Shown here: in pieces, positions 14,126 through 18,657 of the stretch | How positions within the stretch are numbered: position 1 is the first letter of the stretch | Layout: every line of letters starts with the position of its first letter | Assembly: GCA_041666325.1 (NCBI GenBank) | Contig: JBAYHC010000001.1 | Coordinates: forward strand, 59,338-123,337 | DNA from: Patescibacteria group bacterium | GTDB lineage: Bacteria; Patescibacteriota; UBA1384; XYA2-FULL-43-10; 1-14-0-10-43-13 | Length of the DNA stretch: 64,000 nucleotides | Direction: 5' to 3' | The notes under the pieces: generated by a model | The model's database searches: none | Told to the model about the DNA's origin: nothing | What the model saw: the letters and a program-made list of their open reading frames with translations, nothing else | Program-made: the position numbers and the translations under genes

Positions 14126-14140
14126 GTCTGCCGGAGGGGC

Positions 14141-15730
14141 ATGATTCTGTCAAAAAAGAAACAACCATTCGTTTTGATAGTTCTCGATGGTTGGGGCATC
14201 GCTCCAGCATGGGGTGGTAATGCAATAGCACAGGCAGACACCCGTAATTTTGATCGTGCCTGGAATAGTTATCCTTCCACCATATTGCTTGCGTCAGGCG
14301 ATGCTGTCGGGCTGCCAACGAATTCGCCTGGCAACTCTGAGGCTGGCCATCTTAATCTTGGCGCCGGAAGAATTATCCACCAAGACCAAACTTTAATCGA
14401 CGAACAAATCGACAAGGGCAATTTTCAAAATAGCCCGGAAATTTTGGGTGCTATCTCGCATGCCCAAAAACACAATTCGTCGTTACACTTGGTTGGTCTT
14501 TTGTCAAAGACAGGAACACACAGCCATATCAAGCACTTATATGAACTACTCACTCTAATCCATACCAAAGGTTTCTCCCGTGTCTATATTCACCTTTTCT
14601 CTGATGGGAGGGACTCTGAACCAATGTCCGGCATGGAGATGGCCATGGAAGTTGAGAAGAAGATTAAGGAAATCGGGGTTGGTACAATAGCTTCTCTTTC
14701 TGGTCGGTTTTATGCTATGGACAGAGATAATCGTTGGGGGCGCATTGCAAGGGCTTACAATTTACTAACCAAGGGTGAGGGCCAGGTATTCGATTCAATT
14801 ATTTCTGCTTTTCGGGAGTCTTACGGCCGTGGTGTCACCGATGAGTTTGTTGAGCCGTGCCTCATCGCGAACAAGGAGCAGCAGAGATCAACGATCGGCG
14901 ATAATGATAGTATAATTATTTTTAATTTCAGAAGTGATAGAGTCCGGGAAATCACCAGAGCATTTCTGGAGGAAAAACTGCCTGAGTTCTCCGATCGACT
15001 CAAACTTTCCAATCTCTATATTGCTACATTCGTTGTTTACGACGACCACCTACTGTCCCACCAGGTATTCAAGCCCGAAAAGATTGATAATCCTATCGCA
15101 AAAGTCTGGTCTGATCAGAGTTTGCGCCAGTTTCATATCGCGGAGACGGAGAAGTATCCGCATGCAACTTACTTTATCAATGGAGGCGTAGAAAAGCCTT
15201 TCCCTGGTGAAGATCGATTGATGATACCATCTCCTCGAAACTTCCGGACTTACGATTACGTCCCTAAGATGAGCGCCGAGAAACTTAGTGCTATGTTGGT
15301 ACATGTTATCAAAAGCCGTTCCCACGATTTTATTATTGCCAATTTTGCAAATGCCGATATGGTTGGGCATACTGGCAATCTTCAGGCCACCGTGCAGGCC
15401 GTTGAGTTCGTTGACCGTTGCCTTGGAGATATCTTTGTCGAAACAGTTAAGGCAAATGGGGCCGTATTCATCGTCGGCGATCACGGAAACGCTGAGCAAA
15501 TGGTCAATCCAGTTACCGGCGAAGCAGATACAGAGCACACGACAAATCCCGTTCCGTTCGTGGTTGTCAGCGACATAGAGAAGATTAAAAATGCCAAGCT
15601 CTTAACAAACGGTGTGCTTGCCTCAGTTGCACCCACGATACTGGATCTAGCGTCGATCAAAGCCCCGGAGAGCATGGTTAACCCATCATTAGTTATCAGA
15701 GAGATTATAAAAAATGAACCCATCACCTAA
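14141..15730 (+). CDS. gpmI: 2,3-bisphosphoglycerate-independent phosphoglycerate mutase
   Basis: 529 aa; metal/catalytic motifs intact: LIVLDGWG, NSEAGHLNLGAG (catalytic Ser), SDGRDS, ADMVGHTGN, GDHGNAE. Confidence 0.9.
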   Translation: MILSKKKQPFVLIVLDGWGIAPAWGGNAIAQADTRNFDRAWNSYPSTILLASGDAVGLPTNSPGNSEAGHLNLGAGRIIHQDQTLIDEQIDKGNFQNSPEILGAISHAQKHNSSLHLVGLLSKTGTHSHIKHLYELLTLIHTKGFSRVYIHLFSDGRDSEPMSGMEMAMEVEKKIKEIGVGTIASLSGRFYAMDRDNRWGRIARAYNLLTKGEGQVFDSIISAFRESYGRGVTDEFVEPCLIANKEQQRSTIGDNDSIIIFNFRSDRVREITRAFLEEKLPEFSDRLKLSNLYIATFVVYDDHLLSHQVFKPEKIDNPIAKVWSDQSLRQFHIAETEKYPHATYFINGGVEKPFPGEDRLMIPSPRNFRTYDYVPKMSAEKLSAMLVHVIKSRSHDFIIANFANADMVGHTGNLQATVQAVEFVDRCLGDIFVETVKANGAVFIVGDHGNAEQMVNPVTGEADTEHTTNPVPFVVVSDIEKIKNAKLLTNGVLASVAPTILDLASIKAPESMVNPSLVIREIIKNEPIT

Positions 15731-17309
15731 AAACCAGCTGGCGCTATTATTAATAGAGGGCTTTGGCCTATCAACTTCCTCTATCGGAAATGCAATTTGG
15801 GCGGCAAATCCAAAAGCTTTTTTTGACCTGTGGAGAAGGTATCCTCACTTCGCGCTTCAAACACGGTCGGCCAAGGACAAAAAAACAAGTTCTTCTCACA
15901 CTTCTGAATCAAATTTTTCTACCCTGGCCAGTGGCACTATCACAGAAACAAATCAGGAATACATCAATCGCGTAATAAAAGATGGTTCAATTGATAAATC
16001 TGGTCACTTGGCCAAAAAGCTGGACCAGAATTCCGTGCACATGGCATCAGTTCATCTTGTCGGATCAATCTCAAAGGACGACTCACTAGGCTGCATCCGC
16101 CACCTGGAAGCAATTATCGACGAAATATCCAATAAGAATGTTCATAATGTATATATTCATTTAATTATTGACGAGACAATCGATACAAAATTTGATTTGC
16201 TTGATCTCGTTGAGAAAGTTGAGAAGCTGGCTGCCCGCTCTGCCAACATTCATATCGCTACTATCGGCGGGGCTGATTTTTTCCGAGAAACTGTCTCTGC
16301 CAAAATTGACAAACTGTCGACAGGGTTTAAATCCATCTACCGTGGGACAAATAATAGTGCCCTCTCGCTCTCTCAAGCGATATCACTGTATTTAAAATCG
16401 AATGAGAGACCTTCTGAGATGCAGCCAGTATCAATCTTGTCTAACGGCATGCTAAGCGGACGAATCGGCGACTTCGACTTAATTGTTTTCTTTAACCACA
16501 ATCTGGTTGGCCTAGAGAGATTGATGTTCTCGTTCGTTACAGACACAGGCATAAACAATCAGACAAGCCTGTCTCGATCTATCTCGGTTCTTTCTCTAAT
16601 TAGTCCAACGCATGGCAACGAGCGTATTATTTCAATCATAGACCGAAGCTATGAGACTAATCTTTTCTCAACGATCAGCTCTGCTGGCCTGTCTCAGATT
16701 GTGGCCTCTGACAGCAGCCGCATGCAACTTCTCCAGAGCTACTTTCCTTCCAACAAATCAGGAATAGAGGAAATGTACATTCCTGCCCCGCTTGCCTTTA
16801 ACCAATATCTATCCAAGTATCAACGTATTACAAACAAGGTTGCCGAAGGTGCTTTTTCTGCCCTCTCAAGAAAATCATGCGATTTTGCACTTTTGCATAT
16901 CCCCTGCCTTGATATAGTAGCTGAGTCCGGAAGCCTTAACGATGCTGTTGCGGCGGTAAAATACGTGGATAGGTTAATTGATCTATTCGTCAAATCTGCG
17001 TCCTCAATGGGCATAAGAGTGATTATCTCCGCAAGCATCGGCCGAGCAGAAAAGATGACGCGAACCGCAAACCAGAGAGCTTGTGTTGCAACCTCAAACC
17101 CAGTTCCATTTATCTATGTTCCGGACGAACAGGGCACAACCAAAAGAACGAAATTCCACCCATCGCACGAGATTATTACCGAACTGCTTCACCCTAAGCA
17201 TCACATTGCCGATATTGCTCCTACAATATTGAATATTCTTGGTCTCGAGACACCATCATATATGACAGGCAAGGCACTAACCGAATCTTTTGCCCGCGAT
17301 ATTGATTAA
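15714..17309 (+). CDS. iPGM-like paralog lacking catalytic/metal-binding residues (putative pseudoenzyme)
   Basis: 531 aa, collinear similarity to gpmI (LLLIEGFG, VYIHLIIDETID, VKYVDRLI) but SEAGH, DGRD, HTG and DHGN motifs replaced; start overlaps gpmI stop by 17 nt. Confidence 0.6.
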   Translation: MNPSPKNQLALLLIEGFGLSTSSIGNAIWAANPKAFFDLWRRYPHFALQTRSAKDKKTSSSHTSESNFSTLASGTITETNQEYINRVIKDGSIDKSGHLAKKLDQNSVHMASVHLVGSISKDDSLGCIRHLEAIIDEISNKNVHNVYIHLIIDETIDTKFDLLDLVEKVEKLAARSANIHIATIGGADFFRETVSAKIDKLSTGFKSIYRGTNNSALSLSQAISLYLKSNERPSEMQPVSILSNGMLSGRIGDFDLIVFFNHNLVGLERLMFSFVTDTGINNQTSLSRSISVLSLISPTHGNERIISIIDRSYETNLFSTISSAGLSQIVASDSSRMQLLQSYFPSNKSGIEEMYIPAPLAFNQYLSKYQRITNKVAEGAFSALSRKSCDFALLHIPCLDIVAESGSLNDAVAAVKYVDRLIDLFVKSASSMGIRVIISASIGRAEKMTRTANQRACVATSNPVPFIYVPDEQGTTKRTKFHPSHEIITELLHPKHHIADIAPTILNILGLETPSYMTGKALTESFARDID

Positions 17310-17358
17310 TTGTCACATTTTAGATATAATTTGATCCGTCCTCGGCCAAATAACCTTC

Positions 17359-17410
17359 GGGCCCATAGCTTAGCTAGCAGAGCGCCCCGATAGTTATCGG
17401 CTAGGTCAGG
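17359..17410 (+). other. tRNA 5'-half-like fragment (acceptor + D-arm, GGGCCCATAGCTTAGCTAGCAGAGCG) fused to direct-repeat copy 1
   Basis: First 10 nt identical to tRNA-Ala at 17681; no matching T-arm/acceptor 3' strand downstream; repeat AGAGCGccCCGATAGTTATCGGCTAGGTCAGG at 17379..17410. Confidence 0.5.
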
Positions 17411-17414
17411 GAAA

Positions 17415-17675
17415 ATGAAACCCGAGATTTATATATTATCACTTGCAAATGGTCAATATTACATTGGCTCTACCCATGACGTCGAGCGCCGTCTAATCGA
17501 ACACAATTCCGGCAAGACCAAGAGTATCAGACATAAACTCCCCGCGAGACTCGTCTTTCGACAAGAAATTGCCACATTACCAGAAGCCCGAAAGACTGAA
17601 TATAAGTTAAAACAAAAGAAAAGCAAAAGGATCATCGAAACAATAATTACGAGCGGCAAAATTGAAATAAAATAG
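17415..17675 (+). CDS. GIY-YIG nuclease family protein (YhbQ/UPF0213-like)
   Basis: 86 aa; GIY-YIG core IYILSLANGQYYIGSTHDVERRLIEHNSG closely parallels E. coli YhbQ [28 protein letters not shown]. Confidence 0.75.
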   Translation: MKPEIYILSLANGQYYIGSTHDVERRLIEHNSGKTKSIRHKLPARLVFRQEIATLPEARKTEYKLKQKKSKRIIETIITSGKIEIK

Positions 17676-17680
17676 CTGGC

Positions 17681-17757
17681 GGGCCCATAGTTCAGTTGGC
17701 TAGAACGCATCGCTGGCAGCGATGAGGTCAGCGGTTCGAATCCGCTTGGGTCCACCA
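17681..17757 (+). tRNA. tRNA-Ala (anticodon GGC)
   Basis: GGGCCCATAGTTCAGTTGGCTAGAACGCATCGCTGGCAGCGATGAGGTCAGCGGTTCGAATCCGCTTGGGTCCACCA; G3:U70 AlaRS identity pair, anticodon loop CTGGCAG, encoded CCA. Confidence 0.85.
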
Positions 17758-17771
17758 ACTATTTTACTTCA

Positions 17772-17828
17772 AGAGCGAGCCGATAGTTATCGGCTAGGTC
17801 AGGAGTTCAAGTCTCCTCAGATCCGCCA
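17772..17828 (+). other. tRNA 3'-half-like fragment (anticodon-like hairpin, variable loop, T-arm AGGAG-TTCAAGT-CTCCT, acceptor 3' strand CAGATCC, G, CCA) fused to direct-repeat copy 2
   Basis: Repeat AGAGCGagCCGATAGTTATCGGCTAGGTCAGG at 17772..17803; perfect T-arm and CCA but no complementary 5' acceptor strand (GGATCTG) nearby. Confidence 0.5.
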
Positions 17829-17878
17829 CAATTATTAATGACCCATGTGAGTCATTTTTATTATGATATAGTTTTGAT

Positions 17879-18436
17879 ATGAAGTTATACGCTCTCTACA
17901 CAACAATCAGACTACTGAATGGTCAGGAGTGGCTAGAACGCTATATGAGCAAATACGGCCAGCCTTATGATTTGCACATCACCTTGAGGCAGCCATGTTT
18001 TATTGATGAAAAAGATGAGGATAAGCTCAAGTCCAAGGTCGACGCCTTGTTACGGGAGGGCAAAATCAAAAGAATGGTAACGGGCTTCACGAGGGTTGTT
18101 TTTGAAGAGCCAACAACCCAAAATGGCGGGTGTATTATGCTTAATGCCTCATCGTCAACCAGTCTATCAAAGTTACAAAAACACTTGGTGCTAGGCCTAA
18201 AAGAGTATGCAGAATATCAGTACCCGGAGAGGAAAACGTACGAAGATAACTTTATGCCGCATATTACCATAGGAGATAATCTTTCTCTTAAATTGTATAA
18301 AGAAGCAGTCGCGGAATTACCTAGTAAGATTGACGTAAAGGCCGAAATCAACAGTGTTGTCTTGATAGTAGTTGTTGACGATAGTGAGACCGAACGGAAA
18401 AATCCCAATAACATAACAACGTACAATCTGGTATAA
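17879..18436 (+). CDS. 2H phosphoesterase superfamily protein (LigT / 2'-5' RNA ligase / cyclic phosphodiesterase-like)
   Basis: 185 aa with two H-x-T-x motifs: HITLRQ and HITIGD at the expected spacing. Confidence 0.65.
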   Translation: MKLYALYTTIRLLNGQEWLERYMSKYGQPYDLHITLRQPCFIDEKDEDKLKSKVDALLREGKIKRMVTGFTRVVFEEPTTQNGGCIMLNASSSTSLSKLQKHLVLGLKEYAEYQYPERKTYEDNFMPHITIGDNLSLKLYKEAVAELPSKIDVKAEINSVVLIVVVDDSETERKNPNNITTYNLV

Positions 18437-18568: not shown

Positions 18569-18657
18569 GCTGATAAAATCATTCATAATTATTTGACCTG
18601 GGTCCACCAAAAAATAACTAGCACCTTACGAGGTGTTTTTTATTTTTACTGGGAGCG
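18569..18657 (+). repeat. intergenic repeat family B copy 1 (ends in terminator-like hairpin CACCTTACGAGGTG + T-run)
   Basis: GCTGATAAAATCATTCATAATTATTTGACCTGGGTCCACCAAAAAATAACTAGCACC... shares order and long blocks with 19558..19627. Confidence 0.5.

Follow-up and report, generated by a model that had tools for sequence, protein, structure and literature searches.

A probable selfish cassette with a GIY-YIG nuclease gene in a partly duplicated tRNA-Ala gene of a Patescibacteria genome

How does a nuclease gene come to lie, together with a complete tRNA-Ala gene, between two tRNA fragments and two copies of a 32-nt direct repeat? This question is raised by a locus in a metagenome-assembled genome of the Patescibacteria (Candidate Phyla Radiation, CPR), of which a 64-kb stretch of DNA, called the window below, was analysed. 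The open reading frame (ORF) in question encodes a small protein of the GIY-YIG type. We consider it probable, with room for doubt, that the locus is a selfish, homing-endonuclease-like cassette living in a tRNA-Ala gene, with a palindrome as its cis site; its movement we infer from comparisons of related loci. The window is a somewhat decayed member of a widespread, apparently undescribed class, and its architecture is a recurrent, clade-wide trait of this nuclease family at many tRNA genes.

Parts of the window locus

The cassette is one promoter-to-terminator unit in which a 5' tRNA piece with a palindrome (H), the nuclease gene, the intact tRNA-Ala gene, a second H and a 3' tRNA piece follow each other on the forward strand. 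The 5' piece (17359-17384) is of the tRNA-Ala type and consists of the acceptor strand GGGCCCA, TA, a D arm (GCTT/AGCTAGCA/GAGC) and G26. It overlaps with the first repeat copy (17379-17410), which reads AGAGCG (3' strand of the D stem), H, AGGTC (variable loop) and AGG (start of the T stem); this H, CCCCGAT AGTT ATCGGCT, occupies exactly the position of the anticodon arm (17385-17402) and has lost its two outer pairs. The ORF follows at 17415-17675 and encodes 86 amino acids with a match to Pfam PF01541 (E = 3.8e-12). Behind it lies the gene for tRNA-Ala(GGC) (17681-17757), detected by ARAGORN and by Rfam RF00005 (65.9 bits, E = 5e-14), which has the G3:U70 pair and an encoded CCA end and is the functional copy retained within the cassette. 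The second repeat copy (17772-17803) is built of the same four blocks, its H (AGCCGAT AGTT ATCGGCT, 17778-17795) forming a perfect 7-bp stem around a 4-nt centre, and leads into the 3' piece (17796-17828), again of the tRNA-Ala type, with AGGTC, the T arm AGGAG/TTCAAGT/CTCCT, the acceptor strand CAGATCC and GCCA. The 32-nt repeat, the GIY-YIG ORF, the tRNA-Ala gene and both tRNA pieces had been named in a preliminary description of this DNA and were all recovered in place.

The best promoter-like site between 17200 and 18000, TTGATT-17 nt-TATAAT at 17302-17330 on the forward strand, agrees with the consensus at 10 of 12 positions, a consensus match only, and ends about 29 nt before the 5' piece; it probably is the promoter of the original tRNA gene, which would now drive the whole unit. 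No terminator-like site was found in 17200-18000, and none lies inside the unit. The locus has a single strong intrinsic terminator, AGCACCTTACGAGGTGTT with a run of T behind it, at 18620-18647 on the same strand; it probably is the original terminator of the tRNA gene. At 18599-18609, also on the forward strand, the 11-nt end of the intact tRNA-Ala (TGGGTCCACCA) occurs in a second exact copy (two matches in the window, none expected from shuffled sequences). This copy lies 842 nt downstream and, with the tRNA's own 3' end, encloses the 3' piece and a gene for a 2H/LigT-like phosphoesterase (17879-18436); the TGGGTCCACCA repeat is probably an outer layer of the locus.

The two copies of the 32-nt repeat are identical at 30 positions, differ solely by CC versus AG and represent the top repeat family of the region; by our own estimate, the chance of such a match within 1.2 kb is about 1e-10. 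The hairpin contained in them, CCGAT-AGTT-ATCGG, pairs over 7 bp in the downstream and over 5 bp in the upstream copy, and the segment 17766-17832 folds with z = -3.0. In the 64-kb window, perfect CCGAT-N4-ATCGG is found only at the two H copies; confined in this way to one locus, H was discarded as a candidate for a genome-wide repetitive extragenic palindrome (REP). Since three further public contigs from independent assemblies carry the identical sequence, the arrangement is not an assembly artefact.

Because direct repeats of tRNA sequence flank the insert, they might be read as the left and right attachment sites (attL/attR) of a small element that integrated at the tRNA gene by means of an integrase. 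The inverted arms of H around a short centre, which resemble a recombinase core, and the second 11-nt repeat of the tRNA 3' end would fit such an event. However, no recombinase was found among the listed ORFs of at least 30 amino acids between 16000 and 19500 (three of them Pfam-scanned) or among the called genes of those homologous loci that had gene tables, and the sole gene common to a layout that was seen hundreds of times is a GIY-YIG ORF of 80-100 amino acids. Known integrative elements at tRNA sites do share with the window the tRNA target, the tRNA direct repeats at the ends of the insert and the preservation of a working tRNA. In contrast to them, the insert of about 360 bp has no integrase and carries the intact tRNA inside instead of regenerating it at a junction, both junction copies are disrupted by H, and the repeat is the middle part of a tRNA, running from the D stem into the T stem and containing a foreign palindrome. 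We regard integrase-type integration as very improbable.

The GIY-YIG catalytic domain spans residues 5-71 of the 86 amino acids, with no separate DNA-binding domain. The positions of the catalytic Tyr, Tyr, Arg, His and Glu are conserved in the ORF, and Y6, Y16, G18, R26, H30 and E62 are invariant in an alignment of 10 homologues. The product shares 36% identity with E. coli yhbQ, and a clade profile made from the ORF and nine homologues matched the UPF0213 structures 1zg2 (BH0048, 1e-14) and 1ywl (EF2693, 4e-12) and then SLX1 (1e-4), in agreement with the earlier naming of the gene as YhbQ-like; the NCBIfam model for group I intron endonucleases gave 21 bits against a cut-off of 56. YhbQ and YazA have been assigned to the Slx1 family (PMC7017083), and the UPF0213/YhbQ/Slx1 domain is described as a minimal one without the last GIY-YIG motif (PMC1564403). 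With dN/dS (non-synonymous over synonymous substitution rates) of 0.11-0.20 in homologue pairs, the ORF is under purifying selection and, because the catalytic residues are invariant as well, it is predicted to encode a working nuclease of the minimal Slx1-like type. The clade profile retrieved 20,312 clusters (50% identity) at E<=0.001 and 3,918 at E<=1e-10, tRNA-nested or not, from 1.84 billion representatives. In phage and plasmid vectors only distant copies of 35-40% identity were found, and neither the one phage copy inspected, that of Rhizobium phage RHph_Y65, nor a mis-filed E. coli chromosomal yhbQ region had an adjoining tRNA.

With regard to the origin of the two tRNA fragments, neither of them reached E<=10 with the Rfam tRNA model. 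Scores below background in tRNA models had been named beforehand as speaking against tRNA-derived halves; the low scores were indeed obtained, but tRNA ancestry is still clear by comparison, and the scores fail because the fragments are truncated, not because such ancestry is absent. When compared with 237 tRNAs from related loci, both fragments match tRNA-Ala genes best. In the case of the 5' piece, all 11 best matches are tRNA-Ala; over 31 nt it shows 74% identity to the beginning of the intact tRNA-Ala plus leader (repeat family D2), with GGGCCCATAG and part of the leader common to both, has an acceptor of the local GGGCCCA type and is degenerate, since its D loop has lost the GG dinucleotide. 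In the case of the 3' piece, tRNA-Ala 3' parts make up all 12 best matches listed and 17 of the top 40 (best match ...GTCAGGAGTTCGAATCTCCTCAGCTCCACCA); its T arm is perfect, U70 is retained, and its acceptor strand CAGATCC, which is not of the local TGGGTCC type, differs by a single substitution from the CAGCTCC that is widespread in tRNA-Ala genes starting with GGGGCU. Since the acceptor types differ, the fragments derive from two different tRNA-Ala lineages, and the idea that they are the ends of one ancestral tRNA had to be given up. On the simplest reading, the 3' piece would have travelled with the cassette from an earlier host tRNA-Ala; a partner half for it (GGATCTG and then a D arm) was not found in the window. 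In silico removal of 17676-17771 joins the stop codon of the ORF to the repeat (...AAAATAG followed by AGAGCG-H), and this join resembles, judged by its letters and with one extra AG, the ORF-palindrome junction of a sister layout described below.

Taken together, the fragments hold all parts of a cloverleaf, and a 2H phosphoesterase gene follows them, as would suit a tRNA that is split, permuted or interrupted by an intron and yet functional, its halves being joined as RNA, possibly by the 2H enzyme. This had been one suggestion of the preliminary description. ARAGORN with relaxed thresholds and the intron option detected tRNA-Ala only on the locus and called no tRNA in the joined halves, and Rfam cmscan of 17200-18000 at E<=10 returned tRNA-Ala and chance matches, with no group I intron, riboswitch or other RNA family. 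Three of seven acceptor positions are mismatched, so that, as had been stated before, the two parts are unable to form one tRNA. Both fragments share the non-anticodon hairpin, the 'anticodon' loop is an 8-nt non-anticodon, and its counterparts in relatives have centres of 3 to 5 nt. Fragment copies per locus vary as well, from none detected in some relatives to at least eight in others, a behaviour of remnants and not of functional halves. Considering in addition that the fragments come from different tRNA-Ala lineages and that the 2H gene is not conserved with the system, we give the split tRNA practically no weight.

Bracketed by the repeat of the tRNA 3' end, the 2H gene has itself the look of a second ORF that nests at the tRNA gene. 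It was found in 0 of about 200 related loci, and the neighbours of its sole detectable homologue are without a GIY-YIG domain (the tRNAs there were unscanned). We thus dropped the 2H phosphoesterase as a component of the system, and a functional link to its gene is not supported.

Two further observations concern the surroundings of the intact tRNA-Ala and of the locus. The end of the GIY-YIG ORF (17662-17687) and the trailer of the tRNA-Ala (17747-17772) form 26-nt inverted repeats with 85% complementarity, which add about 17 bp to the acceptor stem (fold z = -4.9) and may be a processing stem or a palindrome that received the tRNA insertion. As a family feature this leader-trailer helix was rejected: it was not seen in the related loci, whose z-scores centre on 0, and is thus specific to the window genome. 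Directly upstream of the locus (about 14130-17309), two tandem, very divergent iPGM-like (metalloenzyme/iPGM_N; independent phosphoglycerate mutase) genes encode proteins of 529 and 531 amino acids.

Recurrence of the layout at other tRNA genes

The first four homologous contigs all carry a copy of the downstream tRNA's 5' half, the 18-nt hairpin xxCCGAT-N4-ATCGGxx where an anticodon arm would stand, a variable loop, the ORF and then the complete tRNA, the latter being tRNA-Ala in two of the loci (L005, L007) and tRNA-Asp in a third (L004). Beyond these contigs, 80 loci were sampled from the protein side, using one genome per GTDB species and the peptide pattern RL[IL]EHNSGK. The counts below cover 77 homologous ORFs of 60-140 amino acids from the UPF0213/YhbQ/Slx1 branch. 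The hosts of the 80 loci are Saccharibacteria and other Patescibacteria, Bacteroidota, Ignavibacteriota, Omnitrophota, Margulisiibacteriota and others, and the Bacteroidota include isolates of Spirosoma, Flagellimonas, Bizionia, Terrimonas, Gillisia and Jiulongibacter. The preliminary remark that GIY-YIG genes recur beside tRNAs in the CPR therefore holds, and extends to these further phyla and to isolates.

A tRNA gene on the same strand abuts 64 of the 77 ORFs (83%), and 15 isotypes are represented. The tRNA lies immediately downstream of the ORF in 35 loci, where it starts between -23 and +40 nt from the stop codon, and immediately upstream in 29 loci, where it ends between -1 and 109 nt before the start codon; the remaining 13 ORFs have no abutting same-strand tRNA, so that the question of a partial copy does not apply to them. 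A significant partial copy of the abutting tRNA was detected on the far side of the ORF in 41 of the 64 loci, namely in 23 with the tRNA downstream and in 18 with the tRNA upstream. The complete order of the window, i.e. 5' fragment with H, ORF, intact tRNA, spacer, 3' strand of the D stem with H, variable loop, T arm and acceptor, recurs in five loci (L009, L010, L019, L181, L199) and, with another palindrome, in the isolate Spirosoma fluviale (L079). The sister layout, in which the intact tRNA stands before the ORF, was seen in nine loci (L096, L110, L115, L125, L139, L172, L179, L180, L187). The earlier view of a tRNA gene disrupted and duplicated around a GIY-YIG-tRNA module is supported.

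Those ORFs that run into the tRNA mostly stop (11 of 15) at a TAG that is conserved in tRNAs, either at positions 8-10 or at about 20-23, which means that the ORF borrows its stop codon from the tRNA. The stop lies at positions 8-10 in L004, L005, L025, L026 and L038 and at about 20-23 in, e.g., L013, L037, L072 and L085. A more distant homologue (L006, 2920-3352) is accompanied by a tRNA-Glu-like 5' part and the palindromes TCACCC...GGGTGA and CCACCC...GGGTGG, the whole unit being repeated head-to-tail and running past the contig end.

In a second, protein-blind approach, metagenome contigs were searched for AGAGCR-NN-CCGAT-N3-5-ATCGG-NN-AGG, which yielded at least 120 loci. Among the 120 matches listed, 25 are chance matches in coding genes and 95 lie in a tRNA-like context. 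The latter comprise 45 of the listed matches with a GIY-YIG ORF beside H, mostly within about 30 nt, 23 with an H-bearing 5' fragment followed by an intact tRNA and no ORF, five with H inside a full-length tRNA call, ten within 330 nt of a contig end and 12 others. Full-length tRNA-like genes carrying H are called as tRNAs by ARAGORN (L099, L129, L149, L186, L143, L127/L197/L201), with arbitrary anticodons of three or four bases such as 'tRNA-???(agta)'. These calls are likely annotation traps; if expressed, such tRNAs might be mis-decoding or frameshifting ones.

Palindrome types, arrays and remnants

The GC-rich palindromes sit in the partial tRNA copies and not in the intact ones, and several types can be distinguished. 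In the protein cluster of the window, the palindrome is yCCCGAT-N3-5-ATCGGGr, with CCGAY in all members, and takes the exact place of the anticodon arm. A cluster rich in Bacteroidota has CCTGCCTGCCGGCAGGCAGG (CCTGCC...GGCAGG), mostly located at the D loop behind position 21 or else behind position 26, and other clusters have TCCCGC...GCGGGA or TCCGCC...GGCGGA. The palindrome type tracks the protein cluster and neither host phylum nor tRNA isotype (0 of 2000 shuffles in a permutation test, p<0.001), a signal to which common descent of ORF and palindrome adds. The palindrome CCTGCCTGCCGGCAGGCAGG usually stands between ...TA and G... (21/22 or 26/27) of the redundant tRNA copy (L013, L016, L023, L031, L036, L037, L049, L070), and the varying number of its internal CTGC units suggests a preferred insertion site plus slippage.

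Across 107 instances of H in tRNA context, the stem is conserved and its outer pairs covary, the outermost pair being a Watson-Crick pair of four types in 96 instances, G.T in nine and A.C in one. The centre varies in sequence and length, with 3, 4 and 5 nt in 30, 56 and 21 instances, respectively. In two loci (L009, L179) the H centre at one end is the reverse complement of that at the other, which identifies the flip of H as a DNA-level event. That the centre of H is the host anticodon was rejected as a rule, as this was seen in a few loci only (L127, L197, L201). Apparently genuine tRNA-Ala(GGC) genes with the anticodon arm TCCCG-ATGGCAT-CGGGA, which is H with a GGC centre, were encountered in L095 (1505-1580), L102, L175 and L200; such arms may be the origin of H, or such genes may be its natural targets.

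Units of tRNA 5' half, H, variable loop and spacer can form tandem arrays, with eight units of 72 nt in L125 (198-773) and four of 88 nt in L118. Arrays upstream of an intact tRNA were also seen in L172, L103, L124 and L144, and downstream 3' fragments are tandemly repeated in L009, L010, L079 and L031. Hypermutation of H centres within arrays was not seen in L125, whose centres are constant.

These data bear on an RNA-level device, in which the H-bearing tRNA-like pieces would act in the transcript, either as processing or stability elements of an mRNA carried within a tRNA transcript or as decoy or antitoxin RNAs bound to the nuclease; the latter would bear a loose resemblance to type III toxin-antitoxin systems with their repeated antitoxin RNAs. 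With H standing in register for the anticodon arm, a tRNA-like shape would persist; ORF and tRNA share promoter and terminator, ORFs end in the conserved TAG triplets of the tRNA, and in L125 eight H units precede tRNA plus ORF. The best support for this device are the stem mismatches, which are mostly sense-strand G.U: the G.T excess may mean that the hairpin is important as RNA, although it may also be mutational, through a transcription-linked C-to-T bias. On the other hand, most fragments miss one acceptor strand and cannot fold as a tRNA, the acceptors in the window are unpaired, H is found upstream, downstream or on both sides of the ORF, and the flipped H centres and duplicated junctions are events at the DNA level. 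To our knowledge, the GIY-YIG enzymes characterised so far are DNases. Moreover, arrays are exceptional. In ToxIN-like systems, the array lies directly upstream of an endoribonuclease gene; in L125 and L118 the tRNA stands between array and ORF, the window shows a single H on each side and no array, and the GIY-YIG fold is not ToxN-like. An RNA-level device thus appears clearly unlikely to us.

Some loci have lost the ORF. In L095, the spacer between the H-bearing fragment and the tRNA still encodes the C-terminal 22 residues of the family (LKKKKNRRIIEKIINDGYIKFK), and the ORF-less forms are therefore deletion derivatives. Regarding movement, two metagenome-assembled genomes of Flavobacterium (L023 and L028, 1431-1822) provide the one clear case among the relatives of a cassette more similar than its flanks. 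Their 5' fragment, palindrome, ORF and tRNA-Arg are 97-100% identical and their ORFs agree at 244 of 246 positions with zero synonymous changes, whereas the upstream flanks are 82-89% identical and the downstream flanks unalignable, with a sharp break at the 3' end of the tRNA.

The same comparisons have to be weighed against the possibility that the ORF is a resident UPF0213 gene of the host, acting e.g. in replication-transcription conflicts or tRNA metabolism and co-transcribed with tRNAs, and that tRNA copies, palindromes and arrays are collateral scars of the nuclease or of the fragility of highly transcribed tRNA loci and do not serve its spread. Purifying selection speaks for such a gene, one tRNA-Arg(TCG) position is occupied across genera of the Flavobacteriaceae (L016, L023, L028, L049, L070, L085), and another pair of loci (L045/L050) is apparently vertical. 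The RefSeq name for E. coli YhbQ is DNA damage response exodeoxyribonuclease, and prokaryotic domains of the Slx1 type occur either fused to putative nucleic-acid methyltransferases, including a TrmH-like tRNA methyltransferase, or in operons with such enzymes (PMC1564403). A resident gene is, however, difficult to reconcile with 15 tRNA isotypes and non-conserved flanking genes, with the same palindrome type and close protein relatives in different phyla, with the sharp drop of identity at the edges of the L023/L028 cassette, with the foreign tRNA-Ala lineage of the 3' fragment in the window and with the ORF-deleted remnants. We judge it unlikely, though less so than the other rivals.

A model for the cassette and its closest counterparts

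The ORF remnant, the tandem arrays, the reverse-complemented H centres and the dN/dS values can be read as traces of the life cycle of a selfish element, and the mixed tRNA-Ala ancestry of the window fragments, like the L023/L028 pair, speaks for horizontal movement. For the selfish cassette that we favour, the following course of events can be proposed. The nuclease would break DNA at or near the tRNA gene or the palindrome and, since it is kin to Slx1, might do so in a structure-specific manner on hairpin or cruciform DNA. Recombinational repair could then rely on short homology in the best-conserved parts of tRNA genes, the D-arm and the variable-loop/T-arm blocks, thereby copying the cassette, duplicating part of the target and leaving H in place of the anticodon arm. 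Selection would retain only those products that have one intact tRNA and keep the cell supplied. In the window, the 32-nt repeat would be the duplicated junction of D-stem 3' strand, H and variable loop that flanks the inserted ORF and tRNA, and the mismatched 3' fragment would have been brought in from the previous host tRNA-Ala.

Several points weigh against this proposal. We could derive no single repair pathway that would leave an intact tRNA together with an H on either side, and the duplication step is a gap in the model. The protein of 86 amino acids lacks the DNA-binding domain that confers specificity on GIY-YIG homing endonucleases. The adjacency to tRNA genes in 83% holds for the subclade sampled by the peptide pattern and not for all of UPF0213, E. 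coli yhbQ and a phage copy being without adjoining tRNAs. In the L045/L050 pair, the dS of the ORF (0.135) is about the divergence of the flanks; these loci look vertically inherited and, together with the purifying selection, are compatible with a host-useful resident gene, too. Where the stem of H departs from Watson-Crick pairing, sense-strand G.T outnumbers A.C by 9:1. Finally, no pair of filled and empty alleles was found for the window lineage, whose flanking genes are without close database relatives; nor was an uninterrupted ancestral locus found, the next-best relatives being 34% identical for the 2H protein and 23% for the second, upstream iPGM-like protein.

Among the closest counterparts are the free-standing GIY-YIG homing endonucleases of phage T4, especially SegB in the tRNA gene cluster of T4. 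Such a gene is believed to spread by cleavage of the allele without the element, followed by repair that co-converts the flanks. As in the window, the GIY-YIG gene is located amid tRNA genes with no surrounding intron. Enzymes of the Seg/I-TevI type, however, have more than 200 amino acids with a C-terminal DNA-binding domain, whereas the 86-residue window protein is a catalytic domain only and belongs to the UPF0213/Slx1 branch, and SegB is not known to lie inside a partially duplicated tRNA gene or to have an associated palindrome. Another counterpart is the Allomyces atp6 element of fungal mitochondria, a mobile GIY-YIG ORF with a duplicated gene end. Here, too, an ORF sits in an essential gene, carries along a replacement part and leaves the displaced piece as an adjacent pseudogene fragment; the target, however, codes for protein and the ORF is fused in frame, whereas the window class targets a tRNA gene, can have fragments on both sides or in arrays and has a conserved palindrome in place of the anticodon arm. 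Partial duplications of host genes around homing endonuclease genes are reported in several papers on fungal mitogenomes.

The canonical members UPF0213/YhbQ (E. coli), YazA (B. subtilis) and Slx1 share sequence family and minimal domain with the window protein, but are single-copy genes of the housekeeping type located away from tRNA genes, and neither mobility nor a cognate palindrome has been reported for any of them in the papers searched. REPs with their REP-associated tyrosine transposases (RAYT; 'REPtrons') are alike in that a small nuclease-type gene is flanked by its own short GC-rich palindromes, the type of which co-varies with the protein clade; they differ in using a Y1/HUH transposase and in the genome-wide distribution of REPs, whereas the present palindromes accompany a GIY-YIG gene and occur only in the tRNA copies beside the ORF. 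None of the compared systems joins a domain-only Slx1-like nuclease, nesting in a part-duplicated tRNA gene and a clade-specific anticodon-arm palindrome. We found no description of tRNA-nested UPF0213 genes in the literature searched, which largely excluded subscription journals; for prokaryotic Slx1-like domains, the 2006 survey of GIY-YIG proteins mentions just the methyltransferase fusions.

More tentatively, and with less confidence than for the window itself, we propose that the stand-alone Slx1-like GIY-YIG nuclease and its cognate palindrome could form an unrecognised, minimal class of mobile elements of tRNA genes, which would swap anticodon arms for the palindrome or insert palindromes into tRNA loops, duplicate tRNAs in tandem and cross phyla, giving rise to tRNA-like genes with arbitrary 'anticodons' of 3-5 nt as by-products. 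UPF0213/YhbQ proteins are among the commonest uncharacterised small nucleases of bacteria. If the proposed reading is true, it would provide a concrete, testable biology, that of a tRNA-gene selfish element, for a large branch of them, and would explain many of the tRNA pseudogene fragments and odd tRNA calls in CPR and Bacteroidota annotations. It would also add a new, very small nuclease-plus-site mobile system that might be useful as a structure- or site-specific cutter, and reveal a source of duplication and rearrangement of tRNA genes, i.e. a natural engine of tRNA-gene turnover.

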